From a virus (Duplodnaviria > Caudoviricetes): a DNA stretch of 64,000 bases. The notes under the pieces are model-generated. The model saw only the letters and a list, made by a program, of their open reading frames with translations, ran no database searches and was not told the origin of the DNA. Both the position numbers and the translations under genes were made by a program. Below, piece by piece: positions 20,419-57,820 of the stretch (position 1 is the stretch's first letter; every line of letters starts with the position of its first letter). Where the stretch lies: positions 128,001-192,000 of IMG/VR virus record IMGVR_UViG_3300013947_000019; one strand, written 5' to 3'.

Positions 20419-20442
20419 GGCCCAACTTCAGAAATCCGGGTC
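20419..20442 (-). repeat. 24-bp recombination-like site 1 (upstream of DGR target)
   Basis: + strand GGCCCAACTTC-AG-AAATCCGGGTC. Confidence 0.7.
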
Positions 20443-20496
20443 TAGGTCAAATAAAGAAAAAAAAAGAAAATATAGGGAGGAGCCGAAGCCCCTCCC
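20428..20496. repeat. 69-bp perfect direct repeat, copy 1 (site arm plus terminator)
   Basis: Identical to 57806-57874. Confidence 0.9.
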
Positions 20497-20506
20497 TATT
20501 ATTTAT

Positions 20507-22159
20507 TTAATTTTCTTTTGTTTCAACCATTGTATTAATTCTGTTTACAGGAAATCCTGCAGCACCAGGATGACCGCCACCACCATTCAATACAGCAACA
20601 TCATAACAGTTGATATTGTTTGTATTATTGGGATTAACAGTCAGTTGGCAGATCATTTTCCCTTCATCATTTGGTTGGAAGATCATACTCATATCAATAT
20701 GCCTTCCCTGTGCATCCATATTCTTCATTGCCAACTTAGCAAAAGTATGAACATTTACTTCCTCAGGAAGCTTATTACGATGAACCTGATAAAGGATATG
20801 ATAATTCTTATCCTCAGGGAAATCTACCAGCATAGTAGCGGGTTCACCCGCAGTATCATATCCCATAAAGATATAATTCTTATGCGGTTTAGTTTCATCA
20901 ATAAGTTCTTCGCAGTAAGAGTGCAGAAAACCGGTATACTCGACATTCATACTATAGATCATCTGTACGACATTATTGACAAAAGAATATACAATATTGG
21001 GCTGCTCAACAAACTGTCTAATTTCTTTTTCTACACTATTATCTATCAAATTCTTAGATCCACAGATCGGACATCTGATATATTCTGTATCTGTAGCATA
21101 ATCATATATTCTCTGGGGAATGATTTGTCCACAGTTAATACATGTATGTGTATTATGATCCTCCATCTGTGAATCAGTATAATATATCTGAAGGATAATA
21201 GCTTCGAAAACATTCTCAATAAAATATCGATACGCAACACCAGGATCTAGCTTTTTGACATGTCGATACAGTTCAGCGTTCAGAATAATCTGAGGACTTA
21301 CATGTTGAATAATAGCCTTAATATAATCGATTTTGGGACTATTCGCCAATTCATCCAGATCAATAAGGAAATTGCCCTGTCGTCCAAGATCATATTCATT
21401 TACGTAGTAGAAATAATCTTTTACGATAGAACTATCCGACAGCCTGTCACATATATTTTTGTCTGTCCAATCGATCTTATTGGCCAGAATGAACCACAAC
21501 ATGCTAGCACAATAGCTGTTACAGATGAACATATCGACAGAAACATGCGAATTATATTTATTGGTAAATTCCTGATGGGCTGTAGTCGCAGTAACAGCGA
21601 TATCATTCTTAGGTTTGAACTCAAAGCTACCACAGCTCAGCTTATATGGATCATCACCAAGGCTAAATCTATTATAATAATCTACAGAAGATTCAGCAGG
21701 TGCAAATGGAGAGGTATCAATCTTCGTATACTTAGACTGATGATGATCAATGACGATAAAATGAATATTCTTTGGATTAAATTCACAGTACTCATCTGAG
21801 CATAGAAGAGAGTTTTCTGCGATATCATTCAATTTCTCGATTTCGATAGAACCAAAATCAGTAATCAGAATCCAGAGATCTTCGATTTTAGTTTTATACA
21901 TTTTTTGCATGCGTACCCATTTCTGGATAGTACTGTTAATGACATCATACAGCTCAGGAACCATCTTGGATGTATACACAGTATCAACATACTGTGTTCT
22001 GATGATACGTTCAGGACCAAGGTGATCTACCAAAGCGCAGGATACTCCATCCAGATCAGTATGTGTAATATGGATGAAGTTTCGATAATACTCTTTTTCA
22101 ACACCTTTCTTCATGTCTCGCAGGGAATTTACAAAGCGAATAGAATTGACAATAGACAT
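20507..22159 (-). CDS. DHH/DHHA1 family phosphoesterase with zinc-ribbon insertion
   Basis: HTDLDG, ITDF, IDHH, GGGHPGAAG; CINC...CPIC insertion. Confidence 0.8.
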   Translation of the reverse strand: MSIVNSIRFVNSLRDMKKGVEKEYYRNFIHITHTDLDGVSCALVDHLGPERIIRTQYVDTVYTSKMVPELYDVINSTIQKWVRMQKMYKTKIEDLWILITDFGSIEIEKLNDIAENSLLCSDEYCEFNPKNIHFIVIDHHQSKYTKIDTSPFAPAESSVDYYNRFSLGDDPYKLSCGSFEFKPKNDIAVTATTAHQEFTNKYNSHVSVDMFICNSYCASMLWFILANKIDWTDKNICDRLSDSSIVKDYFYYVNEYDLGRQGNFLIDLDELANSPKIDYIKAIIQHVSPQIILNAELYRHVKKLDPGVAYRYFIENVFEAIILQIYYTDSQMEDHNTHTCINCGQIIPQRIYDYATDTEYIRCPICGSKNLIDNSVEKEIRQFVEQPNIVYSFVNNVVQMIYSMNVEYTGFLHSYCEELIDETKPHKNYIFMGYDTAGEPATMLVDFPEDKNYHILYQVHRNKLPEEVNVHTFAKLAMKNMDAQGRHIDMSMIFQPNDEGKMICQLTVNPNNTNNINCYDVAVLNGGGGHPGAAGFPVNRINTMVETKEN

Positions 22160-22234
22160 AATATTATTCTCCTTTTAAAGTATTTTTATGGAAAAGAAAG
22201 TAGACAGGAGATTTAATTTCTCCTGTCTACTATT

Positions 22235-22244
22235 ATAATATATA
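22235..22244 (-). promoter_or_regulatory. Early-type phage promoter motif TATATA(T/C)TAT (representative copy)
   Basis: Also at 1527, 10965, 29610, 35767 (1 mismatch), 42523 and 61438; all intergenic, minus strand, upstream of gene clusters. Confidence 0.6.
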
Positions 22245-25002: not shown

Positions 25003-26319
25003 TTATTTCTGAAGCCCCTGAATATACTTCTTATATGCACCTAAAATAATAGGAATCAAGAAATAGTTTTCACAAGTCTTCTTATCTTCAACGACCAGGT
25101 TTTCCCAGTCGATATCTTCTTTATTCCACCAAGCAATGATTGCATTTCTTAAATGGGGGTTATAATCACTTTTAACCTCTTCACCGTTGATATATTCACA
25201 TCCAGTGCATTGGCAGTTCATCTTTTCGTCAAACCATTCGGTTTCATACTTGTCATTATTCACAATCCGCTGCATGAATTCATCATCCCATTCAGGGCAC
25301 GTCGTACACATCAGATTGCAATCACAAGTAGTACCATAGTTTTCAAAGTAGATTAAATGCTTACCTTTCCATTTACCAATTCGAGGATCCATACTATAAG
25401 ATTGTGGATATTTAAACTCATCAATCTTATTCTTATGATCCTGCGAGTATAACCGATACAGAATTGATCTGCGATAGGTATAATCATCGATATAAATATC
25501 GGGACAACTCATATAGATTGGTTGGATATTCATCTTATAGTTATTGATTGCATAGAAGATCAAGCTATCATAAATAACAATACCTTCATCAAACATCATT
25601 TTCCATAAGGTAATATCCAGGAAAGCATATGTAGCATCAGTTTCTTTATCATATATTCCGTCATAGATAAATGCAGAACGAGTACGATCATAGAAAAGCA
25701 TACGATACATATCTGCCAGGTTCACATAGTTCTTGACATGATCTTGAATTTGGAAATAAGATTCTTTCTTGATCACTAAGTTCTTATCAGCACCCAGAGC
25801 AGACACTGTCATCATATAATTATCTTTTACTTGTTTCTTAAGTAAAGCAATTTGATTAACATCTCGACTAAATAATCTGAAAGAAACTTCTACAAAGGGA
25901 TTACTCCGTGCAGTCGTCATGGTTACCCCATCTACAATATATAAAGCAGGAACTTGTGACCCATTAATGGTAAACATATCTCCTTCTTTAGGTACAATTG
26001 TATTTGGGAAAATAATACCCTGACTCTGCAGGTTTTCCTCATGACCAAGCTCTTCATCAAACTCAGACTGTGTTACCAGATTATCGATACCCGACATAGG
26101 AAGGTTTTCAATCTCATTATATACAAGATTAGAAGTCGGTCCAATATAATCTTCAATATTACGGAATCCACCAATGGTAGTGGATAGATCTGCATCTACC
26201 GAGAAGTAGTCTACAAAAAGTTGTGGTGTCTGTAATACGGTTGCAGCATTGGATAATTCATTGGCAATATAATTATCCGACTGCCGTTGAATGATATCCT
26301 GCTGACTGATAATTTTCAT
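25003..26319 (-). CDS. Probable virion structural protein
   Basis: 438-aa ORF, AGGAGG SD, late-type promoter at 26369-26380. Confidence 0.5.
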   Translation of the reverse strand: MKIISQQDIIQRQSDNYIANELSNAATVLQTPQLFVDYFSVDADLSTTIGGFRNIEDYIGPTSNLVYNEIENLPMSGIDNLVTQSEFDEELGHEENLQSQGIIFPNTIVPKEGDMFTINGSQVPALYIVDGVTMTTARSNPFVEVSFRLFSRDVNQIALLKKQVKDNYMMTVSALGADKNLVIKKESYFQIQDHVKNYVNLADMYRMLFYDRTRSAFIYDGIYDKETDATYAFLDITLWKMMFDEGIVIYDSLIFYAINNYKMNIQPIYMSCPDIYIDDYTYRRSILYRLYSQDHKNKIDEFKYPQSYSMDPRIGKWKGKHLIYFENYGTTCDCNLMCTTCPEWDDEFMQRIVNNDKYETEWFDEKMNCQCTGCEYINGEEVKSDYNPHLRNAIIAWWNKEDIDWENLVVEDKKTCENYFLIPIILGAYKKYIQGLQK

Positions 26320-26441: not shown

Positions 26442-27155
26442 TTAAGAGAATGTAATTTCATTAGTAGAATAATCAAAATAAAAAGTAATTGAATATACAT
26501 TATCATTTATCATAGTAAATCCTAAATCTTTAGTATTACCCACACCAACATCAATTGTAGCTAGGTTTTCATAAAATAATAAATCATTTTTAAATACCAT
26601 TTTAGATATATTTAATGTTAATTTATGATAATTGGTATTTGCTGATACATATACTTTACTATACCCAGAACCAGTAATATTATTTATTGAATACGATCTA
26701 TCAGTTGATAGGTTTGTACCAGCTGTGTATATAGTATTACCGTTTATTACCGGTAATGTGGCAATACTATTTTTAAGCAATGCTCCATTAACAGAATTTA
26801 AATTTATAACTGGTAAGCTACTAATATTTCTTATATTATCAGCCATAGTTTGGAAAGTCGCCGAACTGGCAGTGCTAACACCCTTGTCAGTAATCGCACT
26901 AGCTATAAGCGACTTTCCATTACTGACAGATATTTTTACCTCATTTAATTGTGCAGTAGTAGCATAGCTACCTACTGGTTGATATACACCACTATGATTG
27001 TGGTTAGCAGCAGCGTATGAACCAGCAGGTTGGTATATTCCATTATGGTTATGATTGGCTGCTGCATAGTTTGATGGATTGATAGATCTAGATGTACCAT
27101 CATTTCCTTTATATATTAAACTCGTCTGGCCAGTCACGAGCTGGCCGGAACTCAG
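26442..27155 (-). CDS. Headless tail-fibre cassette A (no SD; frame begins inside the 24-bp site)
   Basis: Frame LSSGQLVTGQTSLIYKG starts at the CT of site 2 with an in-frame TGA just upstream; YAAANHNH repeats and ITDKGV module. Confidence 0.7.
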   Translation of the reverse strand: MSSGQLVTGQTSLIYKGNDGTSRSINPSNYAAANHNHNGIYQPAGSYAAANHNHSGVYQPVGSYATTAQLNEVKISVSNGKSLIASAITDKGVSTASSATFQTMADNIRNISSLPVINLNSVNGALLKNSIATLPVINGNTIYTAGTNLSTDRSYSINNITGSGYSKVYVSANTNYHKLTLNISKMVFKNDLLFYENLATIDVGVGNTKDLGFTMINDNVYSITFYFDYSTNEITFS

Positions 27156-27166
27156 AAATCACGGCC
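27143..27166 (-). repeat. 24-bp recombination-like site 2
   Basis: + strand GGCCGGAACTC-AG-AAATCACGGCC; terminator at 27194-27223 immediately upstream on the minus strand. Confidence 0.75.
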
Positions 27167-27229
27167 TAGGTCAAATAAAGGAAAAAAAAAAGAATACTCC
27201 CGAGGATCAACCCCCGGGAGTATCTTTTC

Positions 27230-28273
27230 TTATACCAATGTGACTGTATCCATCTTAATATCTTCAGCAGCATGACCAAAGTCTTCCGCTTTTGTATTAT
27301 AATGAATATACACGTGAATTAAATTCATATGAGTTTCCAGATCTTTTACTAGTTTCTCATACTTGCTTACTTTAACTTCACTATCAGACCATATATGCAA
27401 CTCGACATCCAATAATCCCCACTGTTTTACGATATGTTGGATTGTATTCTTATATTCAGAACCACAGTTGGCTAACCAGAGAATATTCTGTTTATCTTTC
27501 TGATCTTTATAGATCTTTCCACAATGCAGATATGCTCCTAATATACTGAATGCACCTTCTGCTACATTAATAATAGCCGGTTTTGGATTCAGTATATCTA
27601 TTGTGGAAGGAATACCATAAATCTTTGTATCATTAGGATCAGGTTTACCGCTAGCTCGATATTGCGTATATCGTTTACCAGTCTTTTGATTTTTAGATAC
27701 ATCACGAAGAATTAGATAATCAGAATATAAACTGACAAATCCGATCGTATAACTATTCAGAGTATCACAATAGTTTTCATTGAATGCAAGTCGTTGAATA
27801 TTATTGATTGATAGAAAGTCATATAAACTTAATTGGATCTTTAAATCTCGAAGTTGGTATGGTTCAAGATTTACTCCAAGGCGTTTATTGATATAAGCAA
27901 GTTTTCGACGGTTTACGTTGGTATCCAGATTAACTAGTTCATAGTCTCTTTTCTTTCTTGCTATAAACTTTTTATCTGATTTAAGATTGATCGTTTTATT
28001 GTAGTTTTCAAGTTCTAATAAAGTTTCAGCATCTCTACACCCAGCTGCTTCCAGATCTTTTGGTTTCAGGAATCCTTTAGCTCCACAAGACATTCTGAAA
28101 CAGCAGAACTTAATAGGTTCTCCAATATCTGGATCAATCTTGATACTCATGGATCCACCACCGTCTTTGTATCCTCCACAGATCCAACATTCACAGGTGG
28201 CTTGTTGACCATCACTGGATTCTACAAATTTAGGTAATGATCGAAGAAACTCCTTCGTCAATTCCAGGCTCAT
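27230..28273 (-). CDS. DNA primase (zinc finger plus TOPRIM)
   Basis: CWIC...CFRMSC zinc finger; VAEGAFS and WSDSE TOPRIM-like motifs; terminal EDFG. Confidence 0.7.
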   Translation of the reverse strand: MSLELTKEFLRSLPKFVESSDGQQATCECWICGGYKDGGGSMSIKIDPDIGEPIKFCCFRMSCGAKGFLKPKDLEAAGCRDAETLLELENYNKTINLKSDKKFIARKKRDYELVNLDTNVNRRKLAYINKRLGVNLEPYQLRDLKIQLSLYDFLSINNIQRLAFNENYCDTLNSYTIGFVSLYSDYLILRDVSKNQKTGKRYTQYRASGKPDPNDTKIYGIPSTIDILNPKPAIINVAEGAFSILGAYLHCGKIYKDQKDKQNILWLANCGSEYKNTIQHIVKQWGLLDVELHIWSDSEVKVSKYEKLVKDLETHMNLIHVYIHYNTKAEDFGHAAEDIKMDTVTLV

Positions 28274-28847
28274 GATTACTTACTCCTTTATTAAACTTCT
28301 TCTCTCGTTCCTCTGCTTCTCTTATCAGTTTATCAATCTGTTCCTGACCTTCTCTTTTGATACGATCAGTATATGTCTTGATATCTTCTTCAGTAATAGA
28401 TCGAAGAAATTGTAAAGTTTCAGTATCACTATTTAGTTTTTCTCGTCTGTTCTTCTCTTGTTTAACTTTCAATCTCCAAAATCGATATTTAATACAATCC
28501 CAACAGCTGAAAGCTAATTCAATATCCTTATCAGTATATTTATAATACTTATCAGTAACCGGATCGTATTCTGCATCAGTCATATCACCTGTAGCATTCC
28601 TACATCTTATTCCACCGCTCGATATAACTGGAATTACTTCATATCTTTCTCTAATGTTTCTATATACCGAAGCAGAATATAATTTCCAGCTATCTGGATT
28701 AATTGCATATATCTTCTTAAAAGACTTCAACGGAATTTTAGTAATATTTCTACAACTATCTCTCCAGGAATTTATATTAATAATGATAATAGCAATCAGC
28801 GGAGATAGAAGCATTAATATTATAAAAAGTGTATTATCGTTTCCCAT
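28230..28847 (-). CDS. Hypothetical membrane-anchored protein
   Basis: N-terminal TM helix; SD GGAG. Confidence 0.6.
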   Translation of the reverse strand: MGNDNTLFIILMLLSPLIAIIIININSWRDSCRNITKIPLKSFKKIYAINPDSWKLYSASVYRNIRERYEVIPVISSGGIRCRNATGDMTDAEYDPVTDKYYKYTDKDIELAFSCWDCIKYRFWRLKVKQEKNRREKLNSDTETLQFLRSITEEDIKTYTDRIKREGQEQIDKLIREAEEREKKFNKGVSNHEPGIDEGVSSIIT

Positions 28848-28849
28848 AT

Positions 28850-29167
28850 TTAATTCATCTCCATATGATCAAATAGATTTTCGAGTCGGTAGCCAGATTT
28901 CGGATTATACATTGTAATCGTACCTCGTGTACTAGTTATATCTGATTTTTCAGAATAATTTGCATTAGTTGTGATAGTACAGTTAGTATCACCACAATAA
29001 TCATTAGATAATGCTAGATAAAATGAGGCACTCAGAATTGCCAATTTCTTTGCTTTCTCAAGACTATAACTATCATCGCCACTATCGCAAATCTCCATTA
29101 TCTTTCTCTGGATTTCTTGTACTTCAGCTTCATCTATAGGAGTTTTAAACCGATCAAATAATCCCAT
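28850..29167 (-). CDS. Hypothetical protein
   Basis: 105-aa ORF coupled to neighbours. Confidence 0.6.
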   Translation of the reverse strand: MGLFDRFKTPIDEAEVQEIQRKIMEICDSGDDSYSLEKAKKLAILSASFYLALSNDYCGDTNCTITTNANYSEKSDITSTRGTITMYNPKSGYRLENLFDHMEMN

Positions 29168-29547
29168 TAATTTCTTTCCTCCACCGTATAAATCTTACCA
29201 TCGATACTAATAATATTATATTTTTCAGTAAATTCATTCATAGTTACAGAATCATCTACTGATACTTGATACTGAGTTTTATATGCAGTCGGTTTATCCT
29301 GTAAATAAAAACATAGAGTACTAGTAAGACCGACACTTATCATAGTAGCAACTAAGATAATAACTGGTGTTCTACACCACCAACAAGATTCTTCAACATC
29401 ATCATATTTCTTAATAGAATGTATGATAATAACTAATGAAATAATACCGAGAATAAGCACAATAAGAGATATAGTACACTTAATATCCCAAATATGTCCT
29501 GTTTCTGCTACTATTTCCATAGAATTAAGAATTGTTACGCCCTTCAT
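29167..29547 (-). CDS. Hypothetical two-TM membrane protein
   Basis: Two hydrophobic helices; GGAGG SD before MKGV. Confidence 0.6.
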   Translation of the reverse strand: MKGVTILNSMEIVAETGHIWDIKCTISLIVLILGIISLVIIIHSIKKYDDVEESCWWCRTPVIILVATMISVGLTSTLCFYLQDKPTAYKTQYQVSVDDSVTMNEFTEKYNIISIDGKIYTVEERN

Positions 29548-29638
29548 AAATAAAGCCTCCATAATGTTATTATAGTTTGGTTAGTATAATATTCCTTTTA
29601 TACACTAATATAATATATATTTAGAATTTCACTACTCG

Positions 29639-29650: not shown

Positions 29651-29712
29651 ATATGACAAGGTGATTTAAAAGAAACACCACTAAGCTCACTACGAAGGGG
29701 TGTGTATAAAAT

Positions 29713-32933: not shown

Positions 32934-32971
32934 AAAGAATATGGGAGGGCAAATCACCCTCCCATTCTTTA

Positions 32972-34490: not shown

Positions 34491-35705
34491 TCAAATAATA
34501 ACAATTGTCTTCATAGGTCTCTGAGAATCTAACTTACTCTCATCTATATCTGGTATACGAGGATCTTTATCCAATAGTACGACGGCTTGATCTACACCAG
34601 AATTTTTATTATGACAATTGTAAGACTGACCTTCACCAAATACATACATTTTAGATGTAGTTTCTTTTGGTGGTCTGCCAACTCGTTTACCATTCTTAGA
34701 TAACGTAGGTTTCTTTGGTTCTGACCTACGTATTAATTCAGTTGGCATATCTGTTCTATCATAGATAGATAGAGGAGGCATATTAAATTTTTCTCTAAAT
34801 TCTTTCTGCCTTTTATAGAGCATAGCTCTCTGTAGTGCTTCTTCTTCCTCTTTGGATAGCTCAGGTTTTTCTTCTCTTTCTTTCCTGTGACGTTCTCTGA
34901 GTTTACGTTCTTTTTCTGGATTATTTAATACATATTGATTATAGAAACCGATACCTTGTTCCAAACGTTCATTATCGAAAGTAATACCTTCAAAGTACTC
35001 TTTATCCAACATCAAATCTTCCAATCGTTCTGGATCCATTTCTCCAAATCGCTGATTTAGTTCATTGATTCTTCGATAGAAAGTTCTGTTAGACATACCA
35101 TATGCTTCATGACAAAATCTAAAAAGATCAGCTGTTGAGAACTCTTTCTTTTTCCACATGATAAAGATCTCCCAGAAATCATATGGCATTGGAATTTTCG
35201 GACGACCAATAGATACGATACGTTTTCTGCGTGCGGCATCAATTCCTTCTCGTTGTCTAGAGATCGTATTTTCACGCTCATTCTGTGCAACAAAAGATAA
35301 TACTTGAAGCATCATATCTGTAATAAATTTAGATATCAAATCTTCTGGATCACCAGTTGTATTCAACAATGGCATATCAATTACATAGATCCCACATCCA
35401 AGATCTTGTGTAATCATTCTCCATTGATCAATAATCTCTTGATAATTACGACCAAGTCTATCGATTGATTTGATTACGATAATATCCCCTTTGCGTAATA
35501 TTCGTATTAATTTCTTATAGGCTGGTCGGTTAAATGATTTGCCTGATTGTTTGTCTATGAAGATCTTGGTAGAACGTACACCATATTCCTCCATAGCAAT
35601 TTCTTGTCGATCTGTTTTCTGTTGTGTTGTAGAAACTCGACAATAGCCCCATACTTCACCCATGTCATTAATGAGATAGCCATCGTCACCCTTTTTAATA
35701 GCCAT
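34491..35705 (-). CDS. Serine recombinase (resolvase/invertase family) with long C-terminal extension
   Basis: YCRVST catalytic Ser, SGK...RP, IDRLGRN, ERE...RQREGI, GRP, HTH-like SNRTFYR. Confidence 0.9.
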   Translation of the reverse strand: MAIKKGDDGYLINDMGEVWGYCRVSTTQQKTDRQEIAMEEYGVRSTKIFIDKQSGKSFNRPAYKKLIRILRKGDIIVIKSIDRLGRNYQEIIDQWRMITQDLGCGIYVIDMPLLNTTGDPEDLISKFITDMMLQVLSFVAQNERENTISRQREGIDAARRKRIVSIGRPKIPMPYDFWEIFIMWKKKEFSTADLFRFCHEAYGMSNRTFYRRINELNQRFGEMDPERLEDLMLDKEYFEGITFDNERLEQGIGFYNQYVLNNPEKERKLRERHRKEREEKPELSKEEEEALQRAMLYKRQKEFREKFNMPPLSIYDRTDMPTELIRRSEPKKPTLSKNGKRVGRPPKETTSKMYVFGEGQSYNCHNKNSGVDQAVVLLDKDPRIPDIDESKLDSQRPMKTIVII

Positions 35706-46259: not shown

Positions 46260-47462
46260 ATGGCGACGTTAAAGCAGCGGCTGAATCGCAAGAACTCCAG
46301 TGGAACGTATGATACCGTTTATCTGGAGACTTCTTCCGAAGTCGTTAAAAGACCGTCTGGTACGACGGTTGAAAGTGATTTAACCAATTATCTGCCAAAA
46401 GTCCAAGACTCGGATTCTGTGCCAGAAAGCCTAACGCACGGCCAGCTCTGTACTGGCCTAAATAAGGGTTTCTTGAGACTTAATAATTCTACAATACAAT
46501 TAGCGAGTCAATCTAGTATAGATACTCTTAGTGGTAATATATCTACAATAAACAATGAAATATCAAGTTTAAAATCCTCTGTCAGTAATGGCAAAAGTTT
46601 AATTGCCGCAGCGGTAACTGACAAGGGAGTACCAACCGCTGCATCTGATAGTTTTACTACTATGAGTAATAATATCAGAAAGATTAATGATCCAGTACCA
46701 GTTCAATCTCTTCCTGAAGGATATACCCAGGTTAATTATATATTAACAGATGGAAAAGCTTATATTGATAGCGGAATATCTAACTTTTTGATACGTTCAT
46801 TAATAACTAATACAAACTGGTATCAGCATTTTTCGCTTAGGTATATATTTTCTATACCAAACGCAGATACTATACCAGATGTATCTCTTGTTACAGATGC
46901 TTTTAGAATATTTGGTAATACTGTATTTAATATTAGTTGTTACAAAAATACAACTGGATACAGCAATAATAGTATATCTAAATGCGATGAAAATGATAAT
47001 AAACGATTTACAATACGATTATATCCAATTGCGACAGATTCATATGTAATCAATACTCTTATAACAACACTAAGTGATACTATAATTGATTATAAACTTA
47101 TGTCAAGTGTAGGATATGGTGGAGGAAACTATTATTGTAATATGCAAAATTATATAGGTAATACAAGCACAGGATCCAATATAGAAACGAAAAGAATGGG
47201 TAATGATTCTAATTCTTTCTATCTTGGACGAGGATTAGTATCAAGAATGCCCGAATCTATACCATCTAAAATTTATCTATTTAATTTATCATATTGTCCT
47301 AGAGATATTACTCCTCAAAACTATAATCCAGCAACTGATATTATAGAATATTCTAATATGATACCTTGCATTAATCCTTCTGGTGAAGTCGGAATGTATG
47401 ACACGGTAAGACAACGATTCTTTGGTAATGCTAACACTGAAGGTAGTTTTACTTATGGATAA
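46260..47462 (+). CDS. Tail-fibre/receptor-binding protein; candidate shufflon expression locus
   Basis: SD AAGGAG; 57-aa MATLKQRL N-module, then LTHGQLCTG, VTDKGV module, LPEGYTQ...GMYDTV domain. Confidence 0.75.
   Translation: MATLKQRLNRKNSSGTYDTVYLETSSEVVKRPSGTTVESDLTNYLPKVQDSDSVPESLTHGQLCTGLNKGFLRLNNSTIQLASQSSIDTLSGNISTINNEISSLKSSVSNGKSLIAAAVTDKGVPTAASDSFTTMSNNIRKINDPVPVQSLPEGYTQVNYILTDGKAYIDSGISNFLIRSLITNTNWYQHFSLRYIFSIPNADTIPDVSLVTDAFRIFGNTVFNISCYKNTTGYSNNSISKCDENDNKRFTIRLYPIATDSYVINTLITTLSDTIIDYKLMSSVGYGGGNYYCNMQNYIGNTSTGSNIETKRMGNDSNSFYLGRGLVSRMPESIPSKIYLFNLSYCPRDITPQNYNPATDIIEYSNMIPCINPSGEVGMYDTVRQRFFGNANTEGSFTYG
46420..46443 (+). repeat. 24-bp recombination-like site in inverted orientation (central CT) inside CDS 46260
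   Basis: TGCCAGAAAGC-CT-AACGCACGGCC; right arm matches site 2 at 9 of 11; CT is the first two bases of Leu58. Confidence 0.5.
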
Positions 47463-47799: not shown

Positions 47800-49796
47800 C
47801 TAAGAGAAATATCAATACAAATATGAGGTCTGAATCCTAAGGTTACGCTATAATGATTACTACTAATAGCGCCATCACTATCAACTGAATCATTATACCC
47901 AGATGAAGATGAAGTAAGAGCCCACCAATAAGAAGCTTCTCCCTTGTATCTACAAATACGATTAGCATTATTTTTATAATAACTAAATCCGCTATTTAAT
48001 TGTGTTCTTGATGGTAAAAATACCTTTCCAGTATAGCTATCTATAGTTTGAGCTACCATATAATTTTGAGCAGTACTAGAGAAATTAGAAAGATATTCTG
48101 TACATTTAGTAGTTAATACTGTAGATGTACATTCTTCAACGATAGTACTATTAGCCAAATACCATTTCGTTCCCTCATTATGAACTACTAAGAAGCTCTT
48201 ATCATCAAACGTTACGGTATTACCAACAACAAGATCACCAGTCAGAGGAATATTAGTAGATTGAGGCTTTGCTTTTCGAATACAAACAATACCTGAACCA
48301 CCTTTGCCGCCAGAAGAATAACTTGCTGAATTAGTACCTTGACCGCCGCCACCACCACCACCAGTATTAGCCATTCCTGCACCTGCTGGATATTTATAGT
48401 TTCCTCCATTACCTCCTCCACCTTTACCACCAGAACCTGCACCACCATTTACATCATAATCAGCGATATTAGTAGAGTTGCATCCTCCACCACCTCCGCC
48501 TGCGTACAGCTTACCGGAAGATTCTCCAAATTCTCTAGTGGTAGTACCTTGACCAGATCCAGCAGAAGTACTTGCACCATCAGAACCACCTTTACCACCA
48601 GTATATGCACCACCATCACCACCAGCAGAGCCTCCATCAGCAGTAGTAGAATTAGTTCTTCCTCCCTTACCACCATTAGCTGAAAGAATATTACCAAAAC
48701 TTGTAGTTTCTCCATTAGATCCAGTAGAACCATTAGCTCCACCATTACCAATTGTGACATCAATTCTTGTATTTGCTGTAATTTTATTATTAAGACGTGT
48801 AGCAGTATATCCTCCTCCTCCACCAGAAGATCCGGAAGTACTAGAGCGATTTCCGCCTCCTCCACCGCCACCAACACAGAAAATATCAATATTATTATCA
48901 TCTAATAATTTAAACTCACCAGAACTTAATAACTCAACAACACCATCTTCAAATCGAATTCGATAATCACCAGTATAAGTAAAATCAAGCCCAGAGTTAT
49001 TGATATTAATTACAATATGCGGACGGAAGCCATTCCCTAATGTTGGAGTAGAACTTCCAGTTATTTCACCAGATGCATATACATAACGCATACCATTAGA
49101 AGATGTCCCATATCTATCTGACATCCACCAAGCTCTAGCTGAATCATTATAATTACAAATACGGTTTGTATTGCTATTATAATACTCAAATCCTCCATTA
49201 CACTGATCATATGTAGGAACAAATACCTTAGCAGTAACATATTCCACAGTTACATCTAAGCAGTATTCCTTAGCAATAGTACTTAGCTGCTCACTCTCAT
49301 ATGTACTAGCAACATTAGCAAGTGTAGAATTTTTATATGCTAAGTTTCCAGTGCTAAAAGAAGTTATACTATAGATATCTTTTGCGGCTAAATACCAATG
49401 TGTACCTTCCTGATGAACAACTCTCCAAGATTTATTGTCAAAGGTGACCAAGTTGCCAACTGCCAAGTCACCAACCAAAGGGATAAAGTCATTACGGAAG
49501 TCAACAAAGTAGTCGACTGTACCACTCTTGATAGTCACTGTCTTGCTGACAGTCTTTCCACCAACGGTACCGGTAATAGACCATTCTCCTTCAGGGTTAT
49601 CTTCAGGAAGTGTGATCTTTGCTGCACCAATAGAACTGATATATTTACTATCTACAGATACACCATCTTTTACTGCAGTAAAAGTAGTAGTTGTAGCTAC
49701 TGTAGGAATAGTTAACCAAATTGAATACGTACCACCAACAGTTGAACCAGAGGTGGCATATCCAATCGATATAGCATTACCATATATGATAGCCAT
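47787..49796 (-). CDS. Receptor-binding protein with two CLec-like domains and a glycine-rich domain
   Basis: Two VTFD..WRVVH...WW...GFRPH domains paralogous to the DGR target; GGGGGG repeats. Confidence 0.75.
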   Translation of the reverse strand: MAIIYGNAISIGYATSGSTVGGTYSIWLTIPTVATTTTFTAVKDGVSVDSKYISSIGAAKITLPEDNPEGEWSITGTVGGKTVSKTVTIKSGTVDYFVDFRNDFIPLVGDLAVGNLVTFDNKSWRVVHQEGTHWYLAAKDIYSITSFSTGNLAYKNSTLANVASTYESEQLSTIAKEYCLDVTVEYVTAKVFVPTYDQCNGGFEYYNSNTNRICNYNDSARAWWMSDRYGTSSNGMRYVYASGEITGSSTPTLGNGFRPHIVININNSGLDFTYTGDYRIRFEDGVVELLSSGEFKLLDDNNIDIFCVGGGGGGGNRSSTSGSSGGGGGYTATRLNNKITANTRIDVTIGNGGANGSTGSNGETTSFGNILSANGGKGGRTNSTTADGGSAGGDGGAYTGGKGGSDGASTSAGSGQGTTTREFGESSGKLYAGGGGGGCNSTNIADYDVNGGAGSGGKGGGGNGGNYKYPAGAGMANTGGGGGGGQGTNSASYSSGGKGGSGIVCIRKAKPQSTNIPLTGDLVVGNTVTFDDKSFLVVHNEGTKWYLANSTIVEECTSTVLTTKCTEYLSNFSSTAQNYMVAQTIDSYTGKVFLPSRTQLNSGFSYYKNNANRICRYKGEASYWWALTSSSSGYNDSVDSDGAISSNHYSVTLGFRPHICIDISLSGRL

Positions 49797-49867
49797 ATAA
49801 AATGGACCTCCTTTTTATATATTAAAATAGATAGGGTAGTGCTGGATGCACTACCCCACTTTTATAT

Positions 49868-51223
49868 TTAAATAGTAACCCAAGTTTCAGATGAGTCATT
49901 ATATAATTTAGCTTCCTGGGGTTGCGCTAAACCATTCTCATCACCAATATATACTGCATCTATACCCAATTCTAATTGTGTATCTGAATTATTAATAGCT
50001 TTCCACATATTAGTACTTGAATTACTTTTAATTAATAGATGATTATATTTAAGTGGAGGATTTATTGTAAAAGATGAATAAAATCCTGCAGATCTAACAC
50101 CGTGTAACAACATAACACCATTTCTAACATTCATACTATTTTCATAATCACAAATATATGGTATAGTAAGAGTTAATTTCTCAAATGTGTTATTAGTTGT
50201 ATTAAATTTATAACAGTAATCACAAGTATTTATGCCTGCTCCACCCATATCATAAAAATTCGTCATAGACTTAAAATAATATATATAATCGCCCATTACA
50301 TACACTTTACCAAATGCTACACTCTCTGGTATAGTAGCAACAACTGATATACTATTAGATGTTAAATCATACATACGTACTGAATTTACAGAATAATCAT
50401 AGTCTTGGCGATATCCAGTTGTTCCACCAAACATATACAAATATCTATTATCTTTTATACAAACTGCTTGACCACAGTATCTATAAGTAGATGTATCATA
50501 CCTAATACGCGTAAAAGTGTCTGTTGTTGTATCAAATTTATTTATATTACCATTCGTATAATTATAATCAGAACCTTCATAACCTCCAACCAAATAGATA
50601 TCTGTACCATTTCTACAACAACCCATAAGAGCAGAACTAGATAAAAATGTACTATTATCTACTTTAGTTAATGTTGGAGAATCAGTATTTGTGCCATCTA
50701 TTTTAATATATGATCTAAATGAAGCTTGTGAATAACCATTTATACCACCAAAGGAATATAATTTATGACCAACTCCTACTAGACTTACACCCCAAGAATA
50801 CGGAATTCCATAAGTGGTTAATGATGATCCATTATCTGAAATAGCCACATAAAATGTTAATTCTCCAGTATTAATATTTAATTTACAAATATTTACACCA
50901 GAATATGTAGTGCTATTTTTTGAATATTGATAATAAACATAACAAAATACACCATCATCATTATCAGCAATAGATATTATCTGATAAGAAGTAGGCGTAT
51001 TTGAAAATCCAGTAGAATTTAGTGTATATTTAAATTGCTTAATAGTATTATTGCTTAAATCAACATTGGGGGTAATTTGTATATTTATTGGATTAATACC
51101 ACTGCACCATAGTTTACTCGTATCACTCGGAGGAGTAGAACCATAATCAATATTCAATTGCACTCCTTTATTAGCACGGCTACCACCACGAATAGTAACA
51201 CCATTACCCATGATAGTTCCCAT
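49868..51223 (-). CDS. Kelch-repeat beta-propeller tail protein
   Basis: LYSFGG, IYLVGG and LYMFGG repeats. Confidence 0.7.
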   Translation of the reverse strand: MGTIMGNGVTIRGGSRANKGVQLNIDYGSTPPSDTSKLWCSGINPINIQITPNVDLSNNTIKQFKYTLNSTGFSNTPTSYQIISIADNDDGVFCYVYYQYSKNSTTYSGVNICKLNINTGELTFYVAISDNGSSLTTYGIPYSWGVSLVGVGHKLYSFGGINGYSQASFRSYIKIDGTNTDSPTLTKVDNSTFLSSSALMGCCRNGTDIYLVGGYEGSDYNYTNGNINKFDTTTDTFTRIRYDTSTYRYCGQAVCIKDNRYLYMFGGTTGYRQDYDYSVNSVRMYDLTSNSISVVATIPESVAFGKVYVMGDYIYYFKSMTNFYDMGGAGINTCDYCYKFNTTNNTFEKLTLTIPYICDYENSMNVRNGVMLLHGVRSAGFYSSFTINPPLKYNHLLIKSNSSTNMWKAINNSDTQLELGIDAVYIGDENGLAQPQEAKLYNDSSETWVTI

Positions 51224-51224: not shown

Positions 51225-51662
51225 TTACTTCACCTCCGAAACAGTAACTAAAACTGTTACATCAGTTTCAGGAACAGCATCCATACATTCAGCATGAATA
51301 GTACCATCCACATTCAAGAACTGCAGAAAGCTACTACCAGCATCCAAGAATGCGCCATATGCAACCGTGTTCAGAGTAGGATCAATCTTACTCTTAGCAG
51401 TAGTACCAGCAATGGTAACATTCTGACTATATACGACTTGATTACCACTATCAGTTCCTTCTGTCCAACTATCAGCTTTTAATACAACTTCGATATATGG
51501 ATCCTTTGTTGCATCCTTTGTAGCAAAGGTTTCAAGCTTTTGACTGACCGTTGTATTATCTGTTTCTGACATGATAACTGCATCGGCTGTAGTCTCTAAA
51601 CGGACGACATCATAACTGCCCTCCGCGTTCCTTCTGTGTAATCTCTGTTTTAGAACGGCCAT
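51225..51662 (-). CDS. Tail-fibre adaptor with MAxLKQRL N-module
   Basis: MAVLKQRLHRRNAEGSYD N-terminus paralogous to 19295, 46260 and 54043. Confidence 0.65.
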   Translation of the reverse strand: MAVLKQRLHRRNAEGSYDVVRLETTADAVIMSETDNTTVSQKLETFATKDATKDPYIEVVLKADSWTEGTDSGNQVVYSQNVTIAGTTAKSKIDPTLNTVAYGAFLDAGSSFLQFLNVDGTIHAECMDAVPETDVTVLVTVSEVK

Positions 51663-51732: not shown

Positions 51733-51756
51733 TGCCAAAAACTAGAAAATCGGATC
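51733..51756 (-). repeat. Degenerate 24-bp recombination-like site 3
   Basis: + strand TGCCAAAAACT-AG-AAAATCGGATC. Confidence 0.4.
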
Positions 51757-51767: not shown

Positions 51768-52412
51768 TTACCATGCATAACAATTAAATCCAATAGTTGC
51801 TAATTCATTTTTAATAGCTGATGTCATACCACCGGTTATTAATAAATATCGAGAATAATTAGCATTAAAATTACCACTAGGATATCCACCAATAAAATAA
51901 TTTATAGTTTCACCAGATTCTAATTTTAGTGTAATATAATTCCAATATGGGTCATATACTGTCATACTAGTAAATTTAGTAAGAGGAGATATGTATGTGT
52001 TATTGCTTCCTAAATATACTGAATATGTTGCAGTTAAATATCCTGATATAGTATATGTTTTATCTAAATGATTAGAAGGCATACTACGAGTATATAACTC
52101 TCCAATATATTGAATGACTAATCCTTGATTTATATTCCTGATATTACTAGCCATTTGCGAGAAGGCAGTAGAAGCTGCTGTGCTAACACCTTTGTCAGTA
52201 ATCGCACTCGCAATCTGCGCCTTCCCGCTACTGACAGATGTTTTTAGTTCGTTATATTGAGCTACTGTAACATATGTACCATTGTGGTTATGATTCGCTG
52301 CTGCATAATTGCCCTTAGGCTGGTAGTTTTCTGGTTTAATGATCCGGCCAGTACCATCATATCCTTTGTATATCAATCCGGTTTGACCTGTCACAAGCTG
52401 GCCGGATTTCAG
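51768..52412 (-). CDS. Headless tail-fibre cassette B
   Basis: Frame LKSGQLVTGQTGLIYKG starts at the CT of site 4; no SD; ITDKGV module. Confidence 0.7.
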   Translation of the reverse strand: MKSGQLVTGQTGLIYKGYDGTGRIIKPENYQPKGNYAAANHNHNGTYVTVAQYNELKTSVSSGKAQIASAITDKGVSTAASTAFSQMASNIRNINQGLVIQYIGELYTRSMPSNHLDKTYTISGYLTATYSVYLGSNNTYISPLTKFTSMTVYDPYWNYITLKLESGETINYFIGGYPSGNFNANYSRYLLITGGMTSAIKNELATIGFNCYAW

Positions 52413-52423
52413 AAATCACGGCA
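52400..52423 (-). repeat. 24-bp recombination-like site 4
   Basis: + strand GGCCGGATTTC-AG-AAATCACGGCA; terminator hairpin at 52432-52454 upstream. Confidence 0.75.
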
Positions 52424-52461
52424 AGAGAAGAACCTCCCCTATTTTAGGGGAGGTGTTCTTT

Positions 52462-52971: not shown

Positions 52972-54021
52972 TTAACGCGCATTACGGATACAAACTATAC
53001 CTGAACCACCAGCACCACTATTGCGCCTAATTAATTGATTTTCAGGATTACTTCTAAAGTATCCTCCACCGCCACCACCAGATCCAGTATTGATAGTGCC
53101 ACCAGTTACATCTCTAATTAATCCTCCAGTATCTTTATGTCCCTCGTATACCTGAAGACCCTGTCCACCGCCACCATTTCCAGGAAAAGTATCACGTAAA
53201 TGCATAGCTGCACCACCTCCACCAGCATATAACTTACCTGTAGCTTCTCCAAATTCTCTGGTGGTGGTACCTTGACTTGTACCAAAATACTTTTTACCTA
53301 GTGTTCCTGTATATGGTGCAGCAGATCCTTCACTAGGATTACTATATGATAATCCACCATCAGACCCGCCATACATTGTAAATATACGTTGAGATAATGT
53401 ACTACCCGTTACACTTGGAGCACCAGATGATCCGCCATTAGATGCAGTGGTATTTGCCATTGTTAAATTCTTAGCAGTTGCAGCGGTTCCACCGTTTACA
53501 CTATATGATCCAAATGATGTCATTCCTCCATTATTTCCAGGTGTGTAATCGCTAGCATCATTATCAGTATTATATGCAGCAGATTCACCACCTGCACCAA
53601 TTATAATTTTAAAAGTATTACCTTTAGTTATAGATAATGATCTAACAGTTTTAGTATAACCAGAGCCGCCACCATGTCCACCCATACCATTAGAACTGCC
53701 CATAGCATAACCAACACCACCAGAAGCTCCACCACCAACCATAAATACATCAATCTTACTAGCAGTATTTCCAAGATCACCTATAGTTAACGTTCCACTA
53801 GTTTTGAAACGAATGACAAAATTTCCTTCTAAGTTTCCTTCAGTAGCATAACTGCCAGTATAAGTAAAAGCAAACGGTGTGCTAGCAGAGTAAAATAATC
53901 TGGCTTTTCCACCTACACCAATATATGCTTTCTGCACCTTTCTTGCCTTACCATTTACACCAATATAGATATTCTTTACTAATCGTGCCTTACTGCTCAC
54001 ACCAATATATAAATTAGCCAT
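52972..54021 (-). CDS. Glycine-rich tail-fibre tip protein
   Basis: IYIGVNGKARKV repeats, VGGGASGG, GTTTREFGE..GKLYAGGG shared with 47787. Confidence 0.7.
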   Translation of the reverse strand: MANLYIGVSSKARLVKNIYIGVNGKARKVQKAYIGVGGKARLFYSASTPFAFTYTGSYATEGNLEGNFVIRFKTSGTLTIGDLGNTASKIDVFMVGGGASGGVGYAMGSSNGMGGHGGGSGYTKTVRSLSITKGNTFKIIIGAGGESAAYNTDNDASDYTPGNNGGMTSFGSYSVNGGTAATAKNLTMANTTASNGGSSGAPSVTGSTLSQRIFTMYGGSDGGLSYSNPSEGSAAPYTGTLGKKYFGTSQGTTTREFGEATGKLYAGGGGAAMHLRDTFPGNGGGGQGLQVYEGHKDTGGLIRDVTGGTINTGSGGGGGGYFRSNPENQLIRRNSGAGGSGIVCIRNAR

Positions 54022-54042
54022 CTCCAATACACCTCCAATAAT

Positions 54043-54417
54043 TTAGCTATACTGAAGATAGATTCTACCGGTAGTAAGAGCTGTTGTTCCAGAAGTCATT
54101 GCACTTGTTCCTGCATAAATTGCTCTAGCAGAAGCTGTACCAACAGCTGTATCTAAAGTTGTCTGACCTGTACCACCTCTTGCTACTGCTAATGTACCAC
54201 TGGTAATATTAGCAGCTGAATGATTGTGAGAAGCTGCTGCATAGCTACCAGCTGGCTGTTTTCCATTAATAGCAGTATCCATGCTAGCAATTTTTGAACT
54301 AAGCAAAGTATTGTCTGTATCTGACATCTTGATCACAGTGGCAATAGTTTCAAGATATATGATATCATAGGTACCGCTATCATTTTTCCTATTTAATCTT
54401 TGTTTCAAGATAGCCAT
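54043..54417 (-). CDS. Short tail-fibre protein with MAILKQRL N-module
   Basis: N-module, SHNH, GTLAVARGGTG. Confidence 0.7.
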   Translation of the reverse strand: MAILKQRLNRKNDSGTYDIIYLETIATVIKMSDTDNTLLSSKIASMDTAINGKQPAGSYAAASHNHSAANITSGTLAVARGGTGQTTLDTAVGTASARAIYAGTSAMTSGTTALTTGRIYLQYS

Positions 54418-54457: not shown

Positions 54458-54481
54458 GGCCCAACTTCAGAAAATCCGGTC
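54458..54481 (-). repeat. 24-bp recombination-like site 5
   Basis: + strand GGCCCAACTTC-AG-AAAATCCGGTC; terminator at 54505-54530 upstream. Confidence 0.7.
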
Positions 54482-54539
54482 TATGGTGAATAAAAGAAAA
54501 AGAATACCCCTGGGAATATTCCCAGGGGTAATTCTATCA

Positions 54540-55802: not shown

Positions 55803-55933
55803 ATCTATAACTCTCCTTTCGAGATAATACTATTAGGAAGTCTATTATAGGTATGTCAAAATCATGTTTTTGTACAAAAATGTTATATTTAATAGAAACC
55901 CCCTCTCCAATAATTGGAGAGGGGTGATTAATT

Positions 55934-56167
55934 TTATTCAGTAGGATTGTTCAAATAATCCAGATATGCAGCGAGTGCTTCTTCAGGAGTATTGAACTCT
56001 TTATTCAGAGTATCTTCAATAACCAATACTCTATCAATATTGGTGATATATCCGCGACGACCAGTGCAGATAACATCCTCATTCTCGTAGTTAAAATTCT
56101 TAATACCAAGAGCTATACGTGCATCAGGAGCAGTCTCCCCAGCTTTAACAACATAACCAGTATACAT
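55934..56167 (-). CDS. Small protein downstream of cassette C (possible fibre chaperone)
   Basis: AGGAGG SD, 77 aa. Confidence 0.55.
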   Translation of the reverse strand: MYTGYVVKAGETAPDARIALGIKNFNYENEDVICTGRRGYITNIDRVLVIEDTLNKEFNTPEEALAAYLDYLNNPTE

Positions 56168-56192
56168 AGTATTTATTCCTCCTTGATAAAAA

Positions 56193-57809
56193 TTAGTTAA
56201 TATTAGTAACTACACCATTTTTAATAACAGCTGCTAGTTGGATCGAGAATCCATCGGCAGACTGATAATAAACTTGATTTACACCAAAGTTAAGTTTCGT
56301 CTTTCCATCATTATACATCTCAGTAGAATTGAAATAAGAAGAAGGATCACAGACTATAGTTCCAGGTTCTAAGTCAGTACTATTAATAGCAAATTTAGCA
56401 ATAGTATGATACCATTTACGATTAGCGTAGTTTGATCCACTACCGTGGTAATATCCACCAATAAGATATACATTTCCTTTATAGTAACCATAGTAATAAA
56501 TATAACCATTACCATATTGTTGTGGCAATATACTATCAAGACCTGACGTGATTCCTGTTTTTATGTTATAAATACTAACACTTTGACATGCAATAACATC
56601 AGTATCTGCTGTTCCAGTTGACATTGCGCCGAATGTATATAATAAATCACCAATCTGAATACAGCTTCCACCAGTTCTATATGTGGCAGAACTACTAGAA
56701 CCAGTATAATGATAAATAATTTTAAGTTCAGATAATGCATATTTTGTAATAAGATTTGTTGCTAAATCTATTTTTCCGTTTAAACCACAGTTAGAAGTTC
56801 CACTAATTCCACCAAAGAATTCTAGTGCATTATCATTTAAAACAAAAGGACCGTTATAAATAAAACTCATATCTCTAATATCAGCTAGCATTGTTATAGT
56901 ATTAGTATCTAAATCAATTACATGTATTGAATGATATGATCCAGAATTAGCTACCATAATATATAATTTATTTCCAATGATTTTAGTAGAATTAATACTC
57001 TGAACTGAACCATATCCAGATTGCACTAAGTCATATCTTGTTGTAACTGCAGTTTTAGTATTATAAACCCACATATATACTACTAAATTAGCATTGTTAC
57101 TGCCGCCAATATATCCCAAAGCATATATATTATCATTATATGTTAGATTAGTATTGCTGAAATTTGTTGCATCTAATCTTCCATTTGCTTCATACGATGG
57201 TTTAGATGGTAGATATGGTACTACCGTATAAATATCAGTATCAATATCATATGCATAACTGTAATTATTAACAGTATTTGATATTACTGCAGTTCCAGGA
57301 CCATCATTACCGGTGGTACCACTAATTCTATATCCACCTAAACAATATAAAACACTACCAATTAAACCAGACCAACCACCACATAAACAATATTCTGTTT
57401 CTGTTTTAATATTATTAGCCGTTCCATCTGCTGTATAAATACCACTTTTAATCTGAATATCATTTATCTCAGAAGAGGCGCGTTTAACCCATAGACCATT
57501 TTGTGCAGTAGGTTGAGTAGTTTGACAAAAGATATTTAATGAACTATCACCACTATATGAATTGATGGATCGAATATTAGTTGCCATCTGATCAAACATT
57601 TCAGTAGAAGCAGTAGGTACACCTTTTTCAGTGATAGCTTCAGATATTTTTTCTTTACCATACTTTACAAGTTCATCATTCATTTCACCTACTACTCCTT
57701 CCACTTCAGATTTTAAAGCATAATCATCTGGTGTAATAATCCGGCCAGTACCATCACTACCTTTATATATAAGACCTGTACTACCTGTCACAAGCTGGCC
57801 GGAACTCAG
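56193..57809 (-). CDS. Headless tail-fibre cassette C (Kelch beta-propeller)
   Basis: Frame LSSGQLVTGSTGLIYKG starts at the CT of site 6; no SD; ITEKGV module; LYCLGG and VYLIGG repeats. Confidence 0.7.
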   Translation of the reverse strand: MSSGQLVTGSTGLIYKGSDGTGRIITPDDYALKSEVEGVVGEMNDELVKYGKEKISEAITEKGVPTASTEMFDQMATNIRSINSYSGDSSLNIFCQTTQPTAQNGLWVKRASSEINDIQIKSGIYTADGTANNIKTETEYCLCGGWSGLIGSVLYCLGGYRISGTTGNDGPGTAVISNTVNNYSYAYDIDTDIYTVVPYLPSKPSYEANGRLDATNFSNTNLTYNDNIYALGYIGGSNNANLVVYMWVYNTKTAVTTRYDLVQSGYGSVQSINSTKIIGNKLYIMVANSGSYHSIHVIDLDTNTITMLADIRDMSFIYNGPFVLNDNALEFFGGISGTSNCGLNGKIDLATNLITKYALSELKIIYHYTGSSSSATYRTGGSCIQIGDLLYTFGAMSTGTADTDVIACQSVSIYNIKTGITSGLDSILPQQYGNGYIYYYGYYKGNVYLIGGYYHGSGSNYANRKWYHTIAKFAINSTDLEPGTIVCDPSSYFNSTEMYNDGKTKLNFGVNQVYYQSADGFSIQLAAVIKNGVVTNIN

Positions 57810-57820
57810 AAATCCGGGTC
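57797..57820 (-). repeat. 24-bp recombination-like site 6
   Basis: + strand GGCCGGAACTC-AG-AAATCCGGGTC. Confidence 0.75.

Follow-up and report, generated by a model that had tools for sequence, protein, structure and literature searches.

Six members of the tail-fibre gene family in the virus record IMGVR_UViG_3300013947_000019 have no start codon, and the question that this locus raises is whether, and by what means, such genes are expressed. The record (259,863 bp, rated 100% complete; G+C content approximately 36%) is labelled G000 herein; its bases 128001-192000, a stretch of 64,000 nucleotides (nt), are termed the window, and positions refer to the window unless given as genome positions. 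Based on the sites, reading frames and rearranged relatives described below, we propose, with a probability of roughly 0.8, that a multi-site serine-recombinase DNA inversion system chooses which tail-fibre (receptor-binding) gene is expressed. A preliminary description of the window had counted seven crossover sites and six cassettes; all seven sites were present, and the whole genome was found to hold ten sites, three of them past the window end, and nine cassettes.

Crossover sites, expression site and cassettes

The only plus-strand member of the cassette family is gene 46254-47462, the third gene of a plus-strand operon (44117-44797, 44889-46154). Its constant head (46260..46431) comprises the start codon and a 57-aa N-terminal module (MATLKQRLNRKN...VPES-L), and ends at the first base of the central CT of the expression-site crossover site (46420..46443, plus strand). 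This site, TGCCAGAAAGC-CT-AACGCACGGCC, consists of the head arm, the core and the arm of cassette E, and occupies codons 57-63, directly after the head. The body of cassette E (46432..47462, plus strand) holds the currently expressed position in G000 and is followed by a bidirectional terminator at 47467-47489. The reversed-centre site inside a plus-strand fibre gene, as noted in the preliminary description, was thus verified, and its head arm proved to be distinct.

All nine remaining sites are on the minus strand, and each site lies directly 5' of a fibre-family open reading frame (ORF). Read in the coding direction, a site consists of an upstream arm of 11 nt, CT, and a cassette arm of 11 nt (11-2-11), the arms being imperfect inverted copies of the half-site consensus GGCCGGATTTY. 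The nine minus-strand cassettes behind these sites comprise six headless ones (C, G, K, X, Y and Z) and three complete genes (A, F and H). Cassette C (26442..27155), which has no start codon and an in-frame TGA in its upstream arm, lies behind site C (27143..27166; GGCCGTGATTT-CT-GAGTTCCGGCC; terminator 27193-27224 upstream), cassette G (51768..52412) behind site G (52400..52423; TGCCGTGATTT-CT-GAAATCCGGCC; terminator 52432-52454 upstream), and cassette K (56193..57809) behind site K (57797..57820; GACCCGGATTT-CT-GAGTTCCGGCC; terminator 57851-57876 upstream), while X, Y and Z lie past the window end. Among the complete genes, cassette A (19295..20368) follows site A (20419..20442; GACCCGGATTT-CT-GAAGTTGGGCC; terminator 20472-20499 upstream), and cassette H (54043..54417), a 124-aa gene with its own head, follows site H (54458..54481; GACCGGATTTT-CT-GAAGTTGGGCC; terminator 54505-54530 upstream). 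Cassette F (51225..51662), likewise with its own head (MAVLKQRLHRRN...), follows site F (51733..51756; GATCCGATTTT-CT-AGTTTTTGGCA), whose upstream arm is degenerate and which stands directly after the stop codon of cassette G with no terminator in between.

The seven 24-bp sites in the window were confirmed in position and sequence, as was the placement of the six minus-strand ones 5' of minus-strand fibre genes. Five of these six had been described as lying directly 3' of a terminator, and strong hairpin terminators were indeed located 20-30 nt upstream of 20419, 27143, 52400, 54458 and 57797, with none at 51733. When G000 was taken together with a relative, G001 (introduced below), a GC-rich hairpin with a T tract was present approximately 10-30 nt upstream in 19 of the 20 non-head sites, site F of G000 being the exception. 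The core read CT in the coding orientation in all 22 sites of the two genomes, and likewise in all seven further head junctions.

The whole-genome scan with a position weight matrix (PWM) that had been recommended was carried out with a matrix built from seven of the sites, and gave 8 matches of at least 30 bits in the 260-kb genome, the best match in 20 shuffled genomes being 20.2 bits. The three additional sites found by whole-genome search are at genome positions 209920, 211552 and 214018 on the minus strand, so that the sites span genome 148419-214041 (66 kb), with core genes in between. A loose 17-nt pattern allowing 2 mismatches was set aside in favor of the PWM, as its 8 matches against 4.7 expected were not significant alone. 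The head site at 46420 scored poorly on the PWM; its first arm, TGCCAGAAAGC, is nevertheless kept as TGCCA(G/C)AAAGC in every relative examined, and it is a real, if distinct, head half-site.

The arms occur in mixed combinations, as had been remarked; GACCCGGATTT is shared by sites A and K, and GAGTTCCGGCC by sites C and K. In addition, the upstream modules of sites A (20428-20504) and K (57806-57883), each composed of terminator, T tract and upstream arm, were 97% identical over 78 nt, and this identity begins exactly at the site centre, the sequences past the modules being unrelated. Such a likeness would be expected if there had once been an exchange at the CT, or if an insulator module had been duplicated.

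The frames of the headless cassettes open at the central CT and read L-(S/K)-(S/L)-G-Q..., without a start codon or a Shine-Dalgarno sequence, and in two of the six an in-frame TGA lies within the upstream arm. When joined to the head at the CT, all six stay in frame, giving predicted products of 294 (C), 271 (G), 595 (K), 478 (X), 583 (Y) and 560 (Z) aa. The complete cassettes A, F and H each have a ribosome-binding site (RBS) and the N-terminal motif MA(I/V)LKQ(K/R)L.., with no promoter evident upstream; joined to the head, they would yield a stub of 62-69 aa (63 aa for A), followed by the cassette's own RBS and ATG. The earlier view of the cassettes as swapped C-terminal modules therefore holds for the six headless ones and has to be given up for these three.

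Paralogues just downstream of the sites differ mainly by synonymous changes, and the ratio of nonsynonymous to synonymous substitution rates (dN/dS) between orthologous headless cassettes of G000 and G001 was 0.32-0.38 (0.34 for cassette K). These values indicate that the headless cassettes are coding sequences under selection.

A simpler account would be that the 24-bp dyad is a promoter or operator of the fibre genes and that the headless ORFs are translated alone from unusual starts, such as the in-frame CTG found at the centre of every site. The position of the motif between terminator and gene, also in front of the three complete genes with their RBS, would fit this account. The complete genes of G000, however, have strong Shine-Dalgarno sequences (AAAGGAG at headed genes), whereas none precedes the headless ORFs, and the Z-type cassette lacks even a GTG. 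A sigma-70 promoter scan also gave nothing specific to the motif; it performed no better than shuffles (85 vs 68; 50 vs 49) and is not informative on whether the cassettes have promoters; the phage may use its own polymerase. Together with the junctions reported in the next section, which show the same cassettes fused to the head in other genomes exactly at the motif centre and the flanks re-assorting at the motif, these observations made the promoter account very improbable.

Junctions in related genomes

Relatives of G000 were found in human and animal gut metagenomes; a megablast search with 14 kb against GenBank phages found nothing. One relative, IMGVR_UViG_3300045988_127368 (G001; 256 kb, approximately 85% identical to G000), was compared with G000 over 600 nt on either side of every site, the upstream and downstream flanks of a site being denoted U and D (K_U/F_D, for example, is the upstream flank of K joined to the downstream flank of F). 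Of the twelve sites in G001, four are on the opposite strand; the genome is collinear with G000 except for blocks whose ends coincide with sites. At these sites the U and D flanks were re-assorted, the homology switching within 6 nt of the CT, and the blocks were inverted; one synteny break lies at genome 174431/2, which is window 46431/2.

The re-assorted junctions of G001 were head_U (E_U)/A_D, G_U/E_D, A_U/K_D, K_U/F_D, C_U/Z-like_D and H_U/new. The first four form a chain through the head, which a fifth junction, missing here, would complete to a single cycle, as expected for the product of successive exchanges with one hub site. In the reciprocal product (site k227283), the upstream flank of site G is joined to the E body, which in this genome is a silent-type headless cassette with a terminator and a normal upstream arm in front of it. 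At l232593 (K_U/F_D), the arm of cassette F stands behind the upstream module of K. Three hub inversions, worked by hand, reproduced the G001 block order -S6 -S5 (-S4) S3 S7 together with the four junctions.

A clean case of an inversion was provided by L041, a contig of 11.4 kb that is 92-96% identical to G000 and in which genome 168793-174431 is joined at the CT to 155154->149992. This arrangement corresponds to a 19.3-kb inversion of window 27155-46431, with synteny over more than 5 kb on each side; the contig reads from the endolysin through the tail operon to the head, which is followed directly by cassette C and then by the virion protein gene 25003-26319 and further sequence. Contig L020, also 92-96% identical, carries the same 46431/27155 junction, so that site C was the crossover point in both. 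The prediction that inversion between 46431 and a minus-strand site would switch the fibre module, and in doing so flip large parts of the genome, was thus borne out by L041, where core genes lie on both sides of the junction; inversions ending at the central dinucleotides, the search for which had been suggested, were found in both G001 and L041.

Other relatives joined the head to other partners. Head/C-type junctions were present in contigs L021 and L022, head/K-type junctions in L023 and L043, and head/A junctions in G001 and L042, the latter being from a 258-kb contig. Across the genomes compared, the head was therefore followed by four cassette types (E, A, C and K). Independently called database proteins agreed with these junctions, P0001 and P0002 being head/C-type fusions (...VPESL/SSGQLVTGQTSLIYKG..., i.e., ...VPESL/SSGQLVTG...) and P0003 a K-type fusion of 563 aa. 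Of the in-frame head fusions, six of which were predicted, examples were accordingly observed in P0001-P0003, L020-L023, L041 and L043.

These fusions also bear on the notion that trans-splicing or template switching joins head and cassettes in RNA. The position of headless ORFs behind terminators would fit such a scheme; yet several assemblies contain the fusions in their DNA, the sites have no intron-like structures beside them, and dyad symmetry with a 2-bp core accords with a DNA recombinase. Joining at the RNA level is hence scarcely credible.

Homology is absent between the head arm and the remaining upstream arms, and each cassette brings its own cassette arm. This locates the exchange at the CT itself, where homologous recombination cannot place the junctions, and points to conservative site-specific, rather than homologous, recombination as the process that made them.

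Strains far closer to G000 were represented by Logan contigs; these came from a single study of 2016 (four runs), and many are at least 99% identical to the window. One contig of 12.4 kb (X3) ends exactly at 46432; another (X2), 99.7% identical over 1251 matching nt, continues past the head, from 46432 on, with a different sequence. The arm in front of the E body is of the silent type in X2 and X4 (...TTTT-CT-GAAACGA..), and the upstream modules in the Logan contigs differ at 51758 and 57812. A 32-nt joint (46432->49448) was too short to name the partner cassette. These contigs show that the arrangement differs between near-identical strains; as a sign of branching, they give a weak hint.

A distant relative, G002 (287 kb, 51% GC), whose recombinase is 57% identical, has heads; no matching sites or headless cassettes were found in it.

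Recombinase, proposed switch and intervening genes

The gene 34491..35705 (minus strand) encodes a serine recombinase of 404 aa, which matched PF00239 over residues 19-161 (E-value 2.7e-29) and phrog_125 'DNA invertase' (8e-50). Its motif Y-C-R-V-S aligned with the active-site serine region of Sin, and an N-terminal catalytic domain with a nucleophilic serine is thus predicted for the product. This product was the only PF00239 match in the 260-kb genome. No tyrosine recombinase (PF00589) match was obtained in the whole genome, a search in which all 14 control genomes gave a match; the term shufflon, in its strict tyrosine-recombinase sense, is accordingly inappropriate here. As the sole candidate in the genome, the 34491-35705 recombinase probably catalyzes the inversions. 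The distance of its gene from the head site is 10.7 kb, and the gene is part of an invertible block.

Among solved relatives, Bin3/Sin (7e-26) and gamma-delta resolvase (1e-18) ranked above Gin, for which the E-value was only 1e-12, and the length of 404 aa does not accord with membership in the Hin/Gin subfamily (about 190 aa). The likeness to Gin, Cin and Hin that had been drawn earlier therefore stands for the serine-recombinase family and the asymmetric 2-bp core; the enzyme itself has its nearer kin in Sin and gamma-delta resolvase. Over residues 1-216 it is similar to the usual small serine recombinases of Firmicutes, and the last approximately 235 aa (window 34494-35198) matched no Pfam family. 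No NCBIfam model reached its cut-off for the protein (32 bits against a cut-off of 272 for the Mpi model). The AlphaFold model was poor (predicted local distance difference test score of 55), and helices at residues 175-233 at most hint at a helix-turn-helix domain.

The recombinase was 96% identical in G001, and hundreds of homologues with 86-88% identity occurred in gut metagenomes, mostly on contigs of only 2-30 kb; a protein search gave only partial matches of 44-46% identity. The C-terminal region includes a conserved charged helical stretch and is itself kept among relatives down to 59% identity. The nearest bacterial homologues, at approximately 50% identity, belong to Lachnospiraceae and other Firmicutes, which may be read as a weak hint to the host.

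In the mechanism that we propose, the plus-strand expression site would supply the promoter, the RBS and the 57-aa N-terminal anchor, ending in the half-site TGCCAGAAAGC and CT, and each of the nine cassettes would be held silent by its position behind an upstream half-site and, in eight of nine, a strong terminator. A recombinase dimer would bind each 24-bp site, and the head site would synapse with an inverted cassette site; 2-bp staggered cuts at the CT and subunit rotation would then exchange the partners, the asymmetric core setting the polarity of exchange. The block between the head and the partner site would thereby invert, over 5.3 to 39.6 kb in G000. As a result, the head would be fused in frame with one of the headless cassettes (C, G, K, X, Y or Z), or a complete, apparently promoterless cassette (A, F or H) would come to lie behind the promoter, after the stub. 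The formerly expressed cassette would end behind the upstream module of the partner, which, site F excepted, includes a terminator. A topological filter, or the need for the special head half-site, might keep the nine direct repeats from giving rise to deletions. Unselected cassettes would presumably stay silent, and we infer that switching is frequent and reversible within a population.

Several points weigh against this proposal. The recombinase is a candidate catalyst, assigned to the sites as the sole such gene in the genome; it is nearer to the resolvases Sin and gamma-delta than to Gin and Hin, and approximately 190 aa of it exceed the length of an ordinary small serine recombinase, forming an uncharacterised extension. 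Of the 11 positions of the common half-site consensus, the head half-site matches only 6. With nine sites in direct repeat, lethal deletions would be expected, and the proposal does not account for their avoidance. The rest of the G001 order requires cassette gain or loss and a transposed block, with no unique path, and the Logan data bearing on co-existing isomers in one population are assembled contigs rather than reads. Finally, in G003 (contig L024), 98.6-99.2% identical to G000 over 25 kb and of the same order, positions 11752-12834 hold a complete headed cassette in place of cassette C (window 26443-27154). This replacement extends from the site centre (5') to the stop codon (3'), a position without a site, and cassette turnover must therefore have a second mode as well.

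The same data are what one would cite for regarding the sites as evolutionary recombination hot spots, that is, module boundaries used in co-infection or in rare past events, rather than as a programmed switch. G003, at 99% identity, has the same arrangement as G000 at sites A and C; besides its site-less 3' boundary and the assembled nature of the contigs, the rearranged relatives in which both flanks are visible are all only 82-96% identical. Nevertheless, the CT of a dyad site is where the junctions lie, even between partners whose flanks are not homologous, and the rearrangements are intragenomic inversions of core blocks, not imports. The headless cassettes are open and under purifying selection, which requires their expression at some time, and all silent cassettes except one stand behind a module of terminator and half-site. 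The genome also encodes a conserved recombinase, and contigs approximately 99% identical to the window already differ at 46432. On balance, the hot-spot explanation appeared unlikely, and the programmed inversion switch is preferred.

A bolder form of the inversion proposal holds that the switch is active about every infection cycle, that this abundant gut jumbo phage has no fixed gene order, approximately a quarter of the genome (66 kb) being re-permuted via one hub site, and that cassette choice is layered with hypermutation by a diversity-generating retroelement (DGR); to this version we would give even odds.

Inversion at the head site would carry core genes along. The partner sites are 5.3, 6.0, 8.0, 11.4, 19.3, 26.0, 35.5, 37.1 and 39.6 kb from the head site, and the segments in between hold primase, virion proteins, polyphosphate kinase, endolysin and the recombinase gene. 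In the window, genes between the sites include those for a DHH phosphoesterase (20507-22159), virion proteins (25003-26319 and 29713-32118), the primase (27230-28273), a polyphosphate kinase (38985-40946; full-length PPK1 with four Pfam domains, best E-value 5e-65; inside an invertible block) and the endolysin (42609-43847). The terminase (14569-16812) and reverse transcriptase (16893-18200) genes are downstream of cassette A. Further fibre-like genes are at 47787-51223 and 52972-54027. Of these, 47787-49796 and 52972-54027 have glycine-rich domains (PF21722) and no recombination site. The gene immediately preceding the expression site, 44889-46154, has at its start a weaker version of the N-terminal head motif (..FNGTDYDTYHLE..) and matches tail and fibre PHROG families; one more head-like motif is at genome 38228.

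A complete DGR occupies window 16893-20368. It consists of the reverse transcriptase (PF00078, phrog_1423), a template repeat (TR; 18453-18545) and a variable repeat (VR; 19325-19417) at the 3' end of cassette A, and every TR/VR mismatch sits at a TR adenine. Gene 47787-49796 ends in DUF6273, the same kind of C-terminal domain as that of the DGR target, and is 67% like cassette A over 600 nt. In G001, the whole 3.6-kb DGR module has sites on both sides and is inverted behind the head. A rearrangement boundary in G001 (site i222855) and L023 falls into the gap 16813-16892, which separates the reverse transcriptase gene from the terminase gene; there is no G000 site at this position.

If the proposed switch is true, the core gene order of this virus would be variable by design, as a by-product of host-range switching, and the system would show how a phage can carry approximately ten receptor-binding options behind one promoter while exposing one of them. 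DGR and cassette switch would be combined in a single fibre family. Metagenomic assemblies of this common gut phage group would be expected to break or mis-join at these sites, and the 24-bp site with its hub-and-spoke topology may serve as a multi-state genetic switch.

Comparison with known inversion systems

Min of the plasmid-prophage p15B, Gin of Mu, Cin of P1 and Pin of e14 are serine-recombinase systems for tail-fibre inversion, of which Min has six sites and many isomers. The system in G000 resembles them in its serine recombinase and in its short sites, imperfect dyads with an asymmetric 2-bp core inside a fibre gene, and, as in Gin and Min, a constant 5' part is fused in frame to alternative 3' parts in inverted orientation; both features were found upon examination. 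In contrast, the invertible segments of Gin and Min are compact, measuring 3-4 kb, hold no genes other than those for fibres and their assembly, and adjoin the recombinase gene, whereas the ten sites of G000 are spread over 66 kb, with the recombinase gene at the distance from the head site given above. The G000 sites are 11-2-11 rather than 12-2-12, and the 404-aa recombinase is nearer Sin and gamma-delta. Also unlike Gin and Min, G000 has a terminator for nearly every silent cassette, and three complete genes would be switched by promoter capture.

The vsa locus of Mycoplasma pulmonis has one expression site with a promoter and 5' coding end, silent genes, and site-specific inversion. G000 likewise has a single expression site, many putatively silent genes without promoter and 5' end, and a proposed inversion at a conserved site near the 5' end. 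The vsa genes, in contrast, encode bacterial surface lipoproteins and are switched by a tyrosine recombinase at one locus, whereas the G000 cassettes are spread across a viral genome. With Mpi of Bacteroides fragilis, G000 would share the principle of one serine recombinase acting on many genome-dispersed sites. Mpi flips small promoter segments, each with a local repeat pair, while the G000 sites share one partner and would thus produce large, mutually dependent inversions.

Several inverted short sites, a constant N-terminus and alternative adhesin or fibre C-termini are features that G000 has in common with the R64/IncI shufflon (Rci) and with Rin. A multi-site arrangement in both orientations was indeed observed, with ten sites in G000, twelve in G001 (four on the opposite strand) and four cassette types at the head. 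The R64 and Rin shufflons nonetheless employ tyrosine recombinases on clustered segments, as described for the Rin shufflon of Bifidobacterium prophages (PMC6109161), and G000 has no such enzyme. In Anabaena cyanophages, an invertible region of approximately 30 kb occurs as two isomers with one inverted-repeat pair (bioRxiv 10.64898/2026.02.14.705889), which likewise places a large block of a phage genome in two orientations; the abstract of that report mentions no cassette choice, in-frame fusion or multi-site network, in which G000 differs from it. A bacterial survey of programmed inversions states that viruses were not scanned (PMC9881135).

A full-text literature search returned Mu, P1, prophage systems, shufflons including Rin, and the cyanophage region, and no dispersed multi-site hub-type phage system was found in it. 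The fibre-inversion logic of G000 is that of Gin/Min and the shufflon, and its dispersed genome-scale layout is new relative to the systems returned; what is notable about the system is this genome-scale dispersal together with the terminator-insulated cassettes, the mixture of headless and complete genes, and the link to the DGR.

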